DNA of 64,000 bases, taken from an uncultured Hormoscilla sp. (GTDB lineage Bacteria > Cyanobacteriota > Cyanobacteriia > Cyanobacteriales > Desertifilaceae). Location: NCBI GenBank assembly GCA_963921275.4, contig OZ001293.3, positions 2,336,001 to 2,400,000 on the forward strand. Reading direction: 5' to 3'. The first letter of the stretch is position 1. Every line of letters starts with the position of its first letter. A model generated the notes under the pieces. That model did not search any database. It had not been told where the DNA came from and saw only the letters and a list, made by a program, of their open reading frames with translations. Positions 2,062 through 25,300 of this stretch are shown piece by piece. A program made the position numbers and the translations under genes.

Positions 2062-2589
2062 CCTCTGGGGGGACATCTCAATTATGAGATACTCCCGACC
2101 TCTGGTTCCCAGGTTCTACCTGGGAACAGTATTCGGAGGCTCCCGCCTCTAAAAATTCCATCTCGGGTTAAGTCTCTCGCATCTTTAAAAAAATGGTATA
2201 AGCTAATTGTAGCTACCCTTGACAAAATGGTATTAGAGTCTATCCGTACCCAACTGTTGGTTGATTGACTCGCGTCTGGGGTGCATCTCATATTCGCAAA
2301 TCTATCTGTAGGGGCAAAGCATTCGGACGACAAATCATGACATAAAAAGTTATGCACTAGAGACGCAACACTGCGCATCTCTAGTATAGCTACTTATCAT
2401 CCCGAATCGGTAGCTGGGTCTCTATAATCTCCGCGCGCGCCGAAGGCGATCGATATCGACTCGTTTACCCTCCGGTGAATGGTAGTAGCCGGCATCGATA
2501 ATTTTCAGCGTCTCTTGCGGGATCGCCATCCGCTTCACTATCTTTTCTCCAAATGACTCTTACTAAAATATTACACCATTATCGATTTG

Positions 2590-2651
2590 TCTCATAGCCC
2601 GCCCGGGGTTCAAACCCCGGGCTAATAGCTAAAGTCGGTTGAAAACCGACT
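2590..2651. repeat. Dispersed REP-like double-hairpin repeat; related copies near 22425-22485, 31185-31270, 36407-36429 (truncated) and 51841-51902
   Basis: TCTCATAGCCCGCCCGGGGTTCAAACCCCGGGCTAATAGCTAAAGTCGGTTGAAAACCGACT recurs in either orientation. Confidence 0.75.
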
Positions 2652-2692
2652 TGTAGAACATTTAGAGACATTAAAATTGGCGTTAAGCCAAG

Positions 2693-2735
2693 TACCCCTG
2701 GCAGGATTTGAACCTGCAAAGACGCCGCTCCTGAA
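2693..2735 (-). pseudogene. 3' half of a tRNA (probably Leu-CAG); 5' half deleted
   Basis: Reverse complement TTCAGGAGCGGCGTCTTTGCAGGTTCAAATCCTGCCAGGGGTA has a T-arm and acceptor 3' strand. Confidence 0.6.
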
Positions 2736-2809
2736 TAAGCGATCGTCGGGTGCAACGATAATACATGTAATCTAGCCCGCGCAGGCGGGCTTTGTTTGTG
2801 TAGCCCCAC

Positions 2810-3105
2810 CCAGCGTATTAGCCTTATTCCGCTGGTTCTCAATGACGACGTTTAATGAACTTTCGCTTTCGCTAGTCATGGTCACTTACTCGACGTTGAC
2901 CGGTTTTAGGCTACCAGTTTTTCGCCTTTTAACCCCGCTTTACGGATTGATGCCATCGCTACCGTAGGGGTTATGTTTTTACTCCTGCACCTGGAGAGGT
3001 GGGCTTTCACCACCATCATCTATAAGTTCTCGGGGCTAATGTAACCCCGGTAGCGGTCCCACTCCTTGACTTGTGCCAAGTCAGTTTACGTTAAACGAAT
3101 CGCAC
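2810..3105 (-). mobile_element. Truncated group IIB intron (5' part of domain I) inserted in a tRNA gene
   Basis: Reverse complement starts GTGCGATTCGTT at 3105 and is collinear with the complete intron at 24401 (CGCTA..CATTAGCC..GAACT; GAACCAGCG.AATAAGGCTA..CGCTGG). It stops at a REP-like repeat at ~2810. Confidence 0.8.
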
Positions 3106-3128
3106 CCCTACCATTGAGCTATGAGGCA
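3106..3128 (-). pseudogene. 5' exon (23 nt) of an intron-split tRNA; identity uncertain (U1 would fit Asn)
   Basis: Reverse complement TGCCTCATAGCTCAATGGTAGGG = acceptor 5' strand plus D-arm, directly abutting the intron GTGCG. Confidence 0.7.
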
Positions 3129-3135
3129 ATAGCAA

Positions 3136-3209
3136 CCCCCCAGGTCAGAATTGAACTGACGACCTCCTGTTCTTCACACAGGCGCTCTGACCAACTGAGC
3201 TACCGAGGG
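3136..3209 (-). tRNA. trnF: tRNA-Phe(GAA)
   Basis: Anticodon arm CCTGT-GTGAAGA-ACAGG; T-arm GTCAG-TTCAATT-CTGAC. Confidence 0.8.
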
Positions 3210-3213
3210 AAAA

Positions 3214-3288
3214 CGAGAGCGGAGGGATTTGAACCCCCAAGTCTTCAGTTTCGTAGACTGACGTGTTCTCCAGTTACACTACGCTCTC
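3214..3288 (-). tRNA. trnR: tRNA-Arg(ACG)
   Basis: Anticodon arm TCAGT-CTACGAA-ACTGA; acceptor GAGAGCG/CGCTCTC. Confidence 0.9.
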
Positions 3289-3292
3289 AAAG

Positions 3293-3381
3293 CGGAGAGG
3301 GAGGGATTTGAACCCTCGACGGTTTTTTAAACCGCTCTTTCTTAGCAGGAAAGTGCCTTATGACCACTCGGCCACCTATCC
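3293..3381 (-). tRNA. trnS: tRNA-Ser(GCT)
   Basis: Anticodon arm CTTTC-CTGCTAA-GAAAG; long variable arm. Confidence 0.88.
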
Positions 3382-3385
3382 AACA

Positions 3386-3467
3386 TGGGCCAGGTAGGAT
3401 TTGCACCTACAACGCATCAAGCGGGGGTTTTACAGACCCTTGCCCACGCTAATAGGCGGGCTGACCC
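3386..3467 (-). tRNA. trnY: tRNA-Tyr(GTA), atypical D-arm
   Basis: Anticodon loop CTGTAAA; acceptor GGGTCAG/CTGGCCC; T-loop GTGCAAAT deviates from consensus. Confidence 0.7.
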
Positions 3468-3498
3468 AAAATTTTTGCCCTCAAAAAATGAAGGCTAA

Positions 3499-3571
3499 TA
3501 GCCCCAACGGGAATCGAACCCGTGTCTTCTGATCGAAAGTCAGAAATCCTTGACCGCTAGACGATGGGGCC
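3499..3571 (-). tRNA. trnE: tRNA-Glu(TTC)
   Basis: Anticodon arm TCTGA-CTTTCGA-TCAGA; canonical GGTTCGATTCC. Confidence 0.9.
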
Positions 3572-3574
3572 ATT

Positions 3575-3649
3575 TGGCGCGGGGATTAGGATTTGAACCT
3601 AAAATTCCAGTTTTGGAGACCGGAGTGTTGCCAGTTACACCATCCCCAC
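3575..3649 (-). tRNA. trnW: tRNA-Trp(CCA), CCA end encoded
   Basis: Anticodon arm CCGGT-CTCCAAA-ACTGG. Confidence 0.88.
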
Positions 3650-3651
3650 AT

Positions 3652-3727
3652 TGGTGGCAGCGGCGGGACTCGAACCCGCATCGACCAAGTTATGAGCTTA
3701 GCGCTTTGACCATTAAGCTATGCTGCT
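3652..3727 (-). tRNA. tRNA with CAT anticodon (Met or Ile2), CCA encoded, two acceptor-stem mismatches
   Basis: Anticodon arm CTAAG-CTCATAA-CTTGG; acceptor AGCAGCA/CGCTGCC. Confidence 0.8.
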
Positions 3728-3737
3728 CGATCGCCAG

Positions 3738-3810
3738 AGGGGAGAGCGGGAGTCGAACCCGCGATTTTCCGCTTTGCAGGCGGACGCCTTACCAACTTAG
3801 CTATCTCCCC
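3738..3810 (-). tRNA. trnC: tRNA-Cys(GCA)
   Basis: Anticodon arm TCCGC-CTGCAAA-GCGGA; U discriminator. Confidence 0.9.
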
Positions 3811-3887
3811 TGGGAGTCCCGACGAGATTTGAACTCGCATCTTCACCTTGAGGGGGTGACGGCTTCAACCAATTTGCCTACGGGACT
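3811..3887 (-). tRNA. tRNA-Glu(CTC)-like, atypical (C33), CCA encoded
   Basis: Anticodon arm TCACC-CCCTCAA-GGTGA; acceptor AGTCCCG/CGGGACT. Confidence 0.7.
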
Positions 3888-3893
3888 TCGCGA

Positions 3894-3968
3894 CGAGGCT
3901 GACGGGATTTGAACCCGCGACTTCCTGTTCGACAGACAGGCGCTCTGGACCAACTGAGCTACAGCCTC
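3894..3968 (-). tRNA. trnD: tRNA-Asp(GTC), first gene of the array
   Basis: Anticodon arm CCTGT-CTGTCGA-ACAGG; acceptor GAGGCTG/CAGCCTC. Confidence 0.92.
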
Positions 3969-3981
3969 AAAAAAGACTATT

Positions 3982-4066
3982 CAGTTTTCAAGGTACAGTT
4001 AACTTGGGGTGGAGCTTTGAAGCTCTTTTTCCCTCGCTCTATTTTAGACTACAAATATAATACATT
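3982..4066 (-). promoter_or_regulatory. tRNA-operon promoter/leader, copy 1: tandem TGTA(G/T)T boxes, -10 TAAAAT, boxB-like hairpin, boxA-like ACCTTGAAAACTG
   Basis: Reverse complement TGTATTATATTTGTAGTCTAAAAT...GAGCTTCAAAGCTC...GTACCTTGAAAACTG; resembles rRNA-operon antitermination signals. Confidence 0.65.
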
Positions 4067-24400: not shown

Positions 24401-25269
24401 GTGCGATTCGTTCTAGCCTAACGTGGTCAAACACGGAACGCTAGCCCGGTTTCATTAGCCGGGAACTCTGACCGCATGGGGGTTAAATTCCCCTCCCCCC
24501 AGGTACGGGGGTGACACCGGTCCTCGGTGCTACGAAGCGACATCATCGTGGTGCTAAGCGAGGACTCAAATGTAGGATAACTGGCAGCCTAAGCCGGTGA
24601 CGCCGCTAGGAAAGATATCCAAGGTTAGAGCAGGCAAACATGTGCAAGCCTCGTTATAAGGAACCAGCGAAATAAGGCTATATGCGCTGGCCTAAAAAGG
24701 AAATGGTAGCTAGTATTAGTTTTAGACTCTGGCTAATATAGTACTCAAATAGCTCCCGGGGTATAGTGTGGACCTAAAGGTATCGCGAAATGTTGTTAGG
24801 GAACGAAGTAACCTCTCGTGTGCTGTCCATCAGGACAAGTTAGATGTTAAGCGCAAGCCACGGGGGGAGGGATGGCCCAAGAAGCGAATGCCCGGGGTAA
24901 TTCCTGGGATAACATCTACAGTAATGTAGATGATGCTGGGTAGCCAGCGCTGACGTGGGTCGGTGATACTAGGAAGCTGCTGGAATGAGTAATCCTAAAA
25001 AGCCACGGAACTAATCCGAAACGCAAGTGGAGGATAAGGTATGGATAACTGGTAAAACTGACTTGAAAATGGTGATACTAACGGTTATCAGAACAACCAC
25101 TCGCTAAACCAGGAAAGGGAAGAAAAGACAGGCGGCAAGGGCTAACGGAAGTAATTCCTATTAAGTCTACCTATGAAAAGGGCCTAGTACCCAGTAGCCG
25201 GATGCGGTGAAAATCGCAAGTCCGGTTCCTCAAGGGAGGGTCGGGAAGCGATTCCCGGCTCGACCCCAT
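24401..25269 (+). mobile_element. ORF-less group IIB intron (~870 nt)
   Basis: 5' GTGCG; domain V AGCCGGATGCGGTGAAAATCGCAAGTCCGGTT; domain VI GGGTCGGGAAGCGATTCCCGGCTCGACCCCAT; EBS1 and EBS2 pair with the 5' exon; no ORF of 60 aa or more inside. The 3' end is uncertain by 2 nt. Confidence 0.92.
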
Positions 25270-25300
25270 CCCGTGCCTCAACCCAACATTAGCGCGGTTG

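Follow-up and report, generated by a model that had tools for sequence, protein, structure and literature searches.

A 23-nt tRNA fragment followed by the first 296 nt of a group II intron, found in the 64,000-nt stretch of DNA analysed here (the window), very probably represents a dead, lineage-specific insertion of a chloroplast-like group II intron that was guided by base pairing into a redundant tRNA-Asn(GUU) gene, part of an accessory tRNA array, before a deletion truncated it.

Reading of the minus strand showed that TGCCTCATAGCTCAATGGTAGGG (3128 to 3106) is directly followed by GTGCGATTCGTT from position 3105. The tRNA piece starts 6 bases after tRNA-Phe and corresponds to exon 1 of tRNA-Asn(GUU) (3106..3128, minus; identified by comparison with orthologues and by a 22/22 BLAST match to the tRNA-Asn of the same-genus genome G003). 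It contains the 5' strand of the acceptor stem, the 5' strand of the D-stem, the D-loop and 3 nt of the 3' strand of the D-stem. Intron nucleotide 1 falls exactly at the junction, with GUGCG at 3105 to 3101 agreeing with a GUGYG-type 5' boundary. The intron piece, delimited by BLAST to the 5' ends of its family (2810..3105, minus), comprises domain I to just past the second exon-binding site (EBS2). About 296 nt of it (3105 to ~2810) could be aligned with the intron at 24401, with 72% column identity. When the 319-nt stretch made of both pieces was compared with the whole genome, BLAST returned 131 HSPs, 69 of which contained an intron 5' end. The best copy was 83% identical over 297 nt (E 1e-79), and the other 5' ends in the genome, at least 68, shared 70-83% identity with the stump. 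Homology to the family ended at ~2810, where a palindromic repeat starts. The preliminary description had reported a 23-nt tRNA 5' exon adjoining the intron start in the sense orientation, ~295 nt aligning with the intron at 24401, and an insertion of a group II intron after tRNA nucleotide 23 in the D-stem. All three observations were confirmed; given the number of HSPs and the E value of the best one, the coordinates and the homology are correct far beyond chance.

The identity of the interrupted gene was established from orthologous arrays. Searching 60 relatives with tRNA-Phe and the junction as a query revealed several genomes that match the window up to 2 bases before the intron and then diverge. 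An uninterrupted tRNA-Asn(GUU) gene directly follows tRNA-Phe in 8/8 orthologous arrays analysed with ARAGORN (loci L032 and L036-L042), and the sequence at this gene in the G003 array (L032) is TGCCTCATAGCTCAATGGTAGAGCGACGCGCTGTTAACGCG; the interrupted gene was therefore identified as tRNA-Asn(GUU). Window positions 3215 to 3108, covering tRNA-Phe and nucleotides 1-22 of tRNA-Asn, were 96% identical to the G003 array by BLAST. Judged from this sequence, the intron site lies between standard tRNA positions 24 and 25, on the 3' strand of the D-stem. Exon position -2 (window 3106-3107) is a G in the window and an A in 8/8 orthologous tRNA-Asn genes. The G appears to be derived in the window lineage, and may reflect pseudogene decay, an earlier variant or a change linked to the insertion.

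What survives of the array (3135..3969, minus) was defined by nine ARAGORN predictions (Asp, Glu, Cys, Met, Trp, Glu, Ser, Arg and Phe) and by Rfam tRNA hits. A tenth gene at 3386-3467 gave a weak Rfam match (30.2 bits) and is a tRNA-Tyr according to its anticodon loop. From 3969 to 3135, the gene order is Asp(GUC), Glu(CUC), Cys, Met, Trp, Glu(UUC), Tyr(GUA), Ser(GCU), Arg(ACG) and Phe(GAA), so that 10 tRNAs are packed into 835 nt. The intact array of G003 contains at least 16 tRNAs. Among four other species of the genus, one has the array, with an intact Asn gene. Genes for housekeeping tRNAs Asn, Phe and Arg were located elsewhere in the genome. The locus thus has the features of a tRNA L-array: many tRNA genes in tight arrangement, duplicating housekeeping ones and patchily distributed. 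Similarly to the arrays described in PMC8421152 (2021), which serve as a comparison system and hold ~20 tightly spaced tRNA genes duplicating the housekeeping set with a patchy distribution, the array in the window is dense and accessory; unlike them, it has had half of its length deleted and contains the stump of an intron. In the available text of that paper, the word 'intron' is used solely about RtcB. Two further features of the G003 locus were observed: a ~1-kb insert with an ORF replaces the 3' part of tRNA-Cys, Met and Trp (L032 104-1166), and an intron of the same family as the stump interrupts the gene downstream of the array, at the contig end (L032 3000-3072).

The stump belongs to a large intron family. 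The first bases of the 69 family 5' ends were GTGCG in 67 cases and GTGTG in one; the remaining one was offset by an indel. Two full-length members, L109 and L111, were 79.5% and 82.5% identical to the stump, respectively, and had a domain V/VI detected by RF00029 (58.5 and 60.6 bits; cut-off 40). Their domain V (D5) was also recognised by RF04357, the model of plastid ndhA/ndhB D5 (62.4 and 62.1 bits; cut-off 53). L109 encodes, at positions 851-2464, a 537-aa protein with RVT_1, GIIM and HNH domains, a property of this family member, not of the stump itself; in L110, the nearest copy, the same ORF is split in two. We take this reverse transcriptase-maturase-HNH type of intron-encoded protein to be linked to subgroup IIB. 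The ndhA and ndhB introns are also listed as IIB in the available part of PMC9275481. The family of the stump is accordingly assigned, by its sequence features, to the chloroplast-like (IIB-type) class. The Rfam D1-D4 models gave no hit to the stump at E<=5. The preliminary description had named a lack of domain I matches as speaking against its proposal, but the result is uninformative because the full-length family members L109-L111 gave none at E<=0.1 with the same models. The intron at 24401 (24401-25275) is ORF-less, with an Rfam domain V/VI hit at 25193-25269. Across the genome, at least 148 RF00029 hits were above the cut-off (148 of the 150 scored, out of 867 candidates). Twintrons were also encountered: in 11 of 68 family copies, a 24401-type intron is nested at a single position in domain I. 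No copy closer to the stump was found in the sister species, where family members reach 78-81% identity, follow the same EBS/IBS rule and occupy unrelated sites. A donor copy cannot be named, since the nearest relative of the stump is only 83% identical.

To locate the exon-binding sites, the first 520 nt of 68 family copies were aligned and scanned for segments complementary to the 5' exon. Regular expressions located EBS2 in 49 of the 68 copies and EBS1 in 43; most of the others are truncated or contain a nested intron. EBS1 lies in a loop at intron nt ~325 and pairs with exon positions -6 to -1, with a mean of 4.95/6 matches in 39 non-redundant copies versus 2.40/6 in permuted pairs. EBS2 lies at intron nt ~260, and its 5-nt core pairs with exon positions -13 to -9 (mean 3.48/5 in 46 non-redundant copies versus 1.41/5 in permuted pairs); the core was perfect in 14 of the 46 true pairs versus 0.05% of the permuted ones. 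By family covariation, the EBS2 of the stump is CAUUGAG (2838..2844, minus; intron nt ~262), which sits in an unpaired stretch of the consensus structure computed with RNAalifold. Its perfect complement in the family register, IBS2 (CTCAATG; 3112..3118, minus; exon -13 to -7), is part of the tRNA D-arm. All 7/7 positions form Watson-Crick pairs, made up of the 5/5 core and 2 further pairs, and the same 7-mer matched the exons of the other 67 copies at no more than 4/7 positions. The presumed IBS1 (GTAGGG; 3106..3111, minus; exon -6 to -1) was placed using the register of relatives, its partner EBS1 being deleted. The earlier statement that the intron is cut just before EBS2 therefore has to be corrected: EBS2 is retained (2844 to 2838), the cut lies between EBS2 and EBS1 (nt ~325), and the element missing from the stump is, as judged from the family alignment, EBS1. 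The idea of a sequence-directed insertion into the tRNA gained support from the 7/7 pairing. Collectively, the exact junction at intron nucleotide 1, the sense orientation and the in-register EBS2 match indicate a genuine retro-insertion and not a chance juxtaposition.

Comparison with G003 also showed what has been lost. Past Asn, the G003 array continues with Gln, Gln, Lys, Leu(CAA), Leu(UAA), Pro, Leu(CAG), Leu(AAG) and Met, followed by a protein gene. In the window, a 3' remnant of tRNA-Leu(CAG) was recognised by BLAST at 2687..2743 (minus; 88% identity to L032 2221-2277), as was, at 2447..2568 (minus; 94% identity to L032 2480-2601), the first part of the gene lying downstream of the G003 array. 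Because homology stops at 2447, this downstream gene is also truncated; it is cut after ~80 nt, and the minus strand contains no long ORF at this remnant. In place of the 612 nt of array between Asn position 23 and mid-Leu(CAG), the window has the 296-nt stump, the repeat and unmatched sequence. Leu(AAG) and Met are likewise missing from the window. The deletion appears to have taken the remainder of the intron and the 3' exon of Asn, along with about seven downstream tRNA genes. In agreement with this, a whole-genome BLAST search with the intact orthologous tRNA-Asn matched only the 22-nt 5' piece and recovered no Asn 3' exon elsewhere. No RF00029 hit, and hence no domain V/VI, was detected between 2400 and 4100, and the copy ends at intron nt ~296. 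We therefore regard the stump as an intron remnant, not a functional intron. Loss of the remaining intron and of the 3' exon had been proposed before, together with a cut by a REP-like repeat, and both proposals were borne out: intron homology ends where a dispersed palindrome begins (2765..2811, minus; 162 dispersed BLAST hits in the genome). The REP-like palindromes at 2765-2811 and 2596-2651 share ...AAAGCCCGCCTGCGCGGGCT... An Rfam call of CRISPR-DR28 at 2773-2796 (36.6 bits, just above the cut-off) corresponds to the palindrome, with no CRISPR array, and looks spurious, as does a call of Acido-Lenti-1 below the cut-off on the other palindrome.

The following sequence of events would account for these observations. 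A mobile intron of the IIB type, whose family has multiplied in this genome, would have entered the array tRNA-Asn(GUU) gene in the sense orientation between positions 24 and 25. Targeting would have relied on the EBS2/IBS2 pairing with the conserved D-arm, which is visible in the sequence, and presumably on an EBS1/IBS1 pairing. The insertion would have occurred in the window lineage only. A later deletion, with an endpoint now marked by the REP-like palindrome, would then have removed the intron from nt ~297 onwards, taking EBS1 and domains II-VI, then the 3' exon of Asn, the Gln, Gln, Lys, Leu, Leu and Pro genes, and Leu(CAG) in its 5' half; we infer the order of the deletion and the arrival of the repeat. 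The remnant would neither splice nor yield a tRNA. It would be the fossil of an opportunistic retro-insertion, dispensable given the housekeeping tRNA-Asn(GUU).

We then considered how specific and how widespread this tRNA insertion is. Only one of the 68 family 5' ends, the window's own, has a tRNA gene at a distance of 300 nt or less, or a flank resembling a D-arm. The other 67 are all more than 300 nt from any tRNA gene, lack a D-arm-like flank and have different EBS sequences. The preliminary description had suggested a tRNA-targeting intron lineage. This was not borne out, the position of the other 67 copies at non-tRNA sites being the very result it had named as speaking against its proposal. 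Of 401 genomes sampled in the phylum, 1 showed the junction pattern, namely the window's own. Pattern searches of a genome collection and a metagenome collection returned 59 loci (23 and 36, respectively; by our estimate, ~70 chance hits were expected in the genome collection), none of which was a tRNA-Asn with this intron. The two cyanobacterial pattern matches, L054 and L062, were rejected, having no tRNA or intron context. No full-length homologue at the tRNA-Asn 24/25 site was found in these genomes and collections. The insertion thus looks like a lineage-specific one-off, since 8/8 orthologous arrays are intact, the pattern occurs in 1/401 genomes and the collections contain no tRNA-Asn junction. 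In the open-access literature that we searched, no group II intron was described in the D-stem of a bacterial tRNA.

The same pattern search did retrieve a different tRNA. At 14 metagenome or MAG loci (L058, L067, L070-L072, L079, L080, L083, L086, L090, L092, L099, L100 and L102), a group II intron without an ORF interrupts tRNA-Lys(UUU) at the same point, behind nt 23. In 12 of the 14, both exons could be placed, with an intron length of 625-1867 nt, and a D5 hit was obtained in 5/5 loci scanned. Gene content (rbcL without rbcS, chlB, chlL and rps2) and a G+C of 32-39% identify the 14 loci as green-type plastid contigs. The insertion point is identical to that of the stump and the D-arm nearly so (...CTCAATGGTAGAG directly followed by GUGCGA). 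On one further reading, the 24/25 position of the D-stem may be a recurrent natural homing site of IIB introns in cyanobacteria and plastids; free-living cyanobacteria whose chloroplast-like introns proliferate would continue to produce such insertions de novo, and the plastid trnG-UCC intron of land plants and the tRNA-Lys introns of these contigs would likewise have arisen from this intron class. The conserved D-arm, by supplying a ready-made IBS2-IBS1, is the reason for entertaining it. We consider such recurrent homing improbable; the 14 loci are silent on site preference because the search pattern fixed the site.

The alternative that no insertion took place, and that deletion or recombination placed an intron 5' end beside a tRNA fragment by chance, is very unlikely. 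Several deletions have indeed affected the locus and REP-like repeats are present, but the breakpoint would have to hit intron nucleotide 1 exactly. In addition, a 7/7 EBS2 match in the family register has a probability of ~6e-5 by chance (fixed register), a match that none of the other 67 exons approaches. That the stump persists because it serves some role, such as signalling 3' processing or termination in the shortened tRNA operon, is just as hard to credit. Its sense orientation, its position directly after the last intact tRNA (Phe) and the palindrome behind it would suit such a role, but it is not conserved, it is absent from all other genomes searched, and the neighbouring genes have decayed too. 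The stump is without function.

Kinship with a plastid tRNA intron had also been suggested. The plastid trnG-UCC group II intron of land plants probably follows a 23-nt exon 1, at D-stem position 24/25. It resembles the stump in being a group II intron in a tRNA, of the IIB class and apparently at an equivalent position. Unlike the stump, which is lineage-specific and dead, the plastid intron is fixed and vertically inherited, and resides in another host tRNA. It is extremely unlikely that the stump belongs to the plastid trnG-UCC IIB lineage, or represents its cyanobacterial ancestor type, and owes its position to common descent. The apparently shared position, the listing of the plastid trnG intron as group IIB in the available part of PMC9275481 and the resemblance of the family D5 to plastid IIB D5 models would favour it. 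Against it, the host is tRNA-Asn(GUU), not Gly(UCC); the insertion is absent from 8/8 orthologous arrays and from 400/400 other genomes sampled in the phylum; and the other 67 copies occupy non-tRNA sites with different EBS. Furthermore, an nhmmer search with a profile of the 5' 520 nt of the family found nothing at E<=10 in the 14 tRNA-Lys plastid loci, used as a proxy for trnG; the same profile found the sister subfamily at E 4e-21. The suggested kinship is therefore unsupported by the host tRNA, by the non-tRNA sites of the family and by the negative proxy search. The position apparently common to the stump and plastid trnG is best read, from these comparisons, as coincidence or convergence.

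Public short-read data were used to examine the assembly. A 1616-nt contig from runs X1-X3 (one study, which may have sequenced the source strain) covered 3011-4000 with 0 differences and spanned the exon/intron junction, and a second contig from these runs covered 2300-2624. No contig from runs X1-X3 or X5 extended across 2625-3010, and the 2811 truncation point within this interval was crossed by neither a read nor a contig; short-read contigs break in repeats. An assembly artefact created by the many intron repeats (at least 148 copies in the genome, with contigs breaking at 2625-3010) can practically be dismissed, given that the junction itself is crossed without differences, in a test that is not independent if those runs were the source of the assembly, and that the stump is effectively a unique sequence because no other copy exceeds 83% identity to it.

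The retro-insertion into the array is not the only case of a group II intron in a tRNA gene of this genome. ARAGORN with introns allowed revealed that the only tRNA-Arg(UCU) gene (C1:4993817-4994726, minus; L125) contains an intact, ORF-less 835-nt group II intron between positions 38 and 39. This intron belongs to the 24401 subfamily, sister to that of the stump, and has a D5 hit of 46.8 bits. Its EBS1 (UUAGAA) pairs with TTCTAA at 6/6 positions and its EBS2 (CCCUU) with AAGGG at exon -13 to -9 at 5/5 positions. The tRNA-Arg(UCU) gene is uninterrupted in 8/8 relatives examined. Splicing of the intron is presumably needed for reading AGA codons. Two subfamilies have thus each entered one tRNA at different positions, which fits opportunistic retargeting.

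The housekeeping tRNA-Asn(GUU) gene was found at C1:2857980-2858318 (minus; L124) by probing with its housekeeping counterpart from a relative. In the anticodon loop, a group I intron of 266 nt (RF00028, 84.9 bits) interrupts it. The possibility that this gene was absent, or had a group II intron, was rejected on this basis, ARAGORN and a motif scan having missed the gene. The intron-bearing gene is miscalled tRNA-Thr by ARAGORN. Since a housekeeping tRNA-Asn(GUU) is present elsewhere, the array copy is redundant.

A group II intron in a cyanobacterial tRNA was already known: TeI4h interrupts tRNA-Ile(CAU), a gene present once in Thermosynechococcus elongatus (Mohr et al. 2010, PMC2882425). 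According to the available text of that paper, TeI4h is likewise a cyanobacterial IIB-type intron of a family spread by EBS divergence. Unlike TeI4h, which is full length, has an ORF and resides in an essential tRNA, the stump is 296 nt long and sits in the D-stem of a redundant array copy of tRNA-Asn. The genome as a whole, with its D5 hits (at least 148), its mixture of ORF-containing and ORF-less copies, nesting and variable EBS, resembles the accounts available to us of proliferated chloroplast-like introns in filamentous cyanobacteria. A minimum of 150 group II introns has been reported in Arthrospira platensis (PMC2853384), and 101 introns in a later survey (PMC8919778); tRNA targets are unmentioned in the available parts of both papers.

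As the stump indicates, the D-arm of a tRNA can become a new target for a bacterial group II intron that is proliferating, and the guiding pairing is still legible. Together with the tRNA-Arg(UCU) intron, it shows that cyanobacteria saturated with introns do not have their tRNA genes spared. An origin of plastid tRNA introns by ordinary retro-insertion is thereby easier to picture, although the stump is no cyanobacterial counterpart of the plastid trnG intron. As a lead, the tRNA-Arg(UCU) intron is more useful than the stump. The other intron-allowed ARAGORN calls (Leu-tag, Gly-tcc, Arg-ccg, Asn-att twice, Glu-ttc, Phe-gaa and Ala-cgc) were judged spurious on inspection. The tRNA-Leu(UAA) and initiator tRNA genes have apparent, putative introns of ~240 nt.
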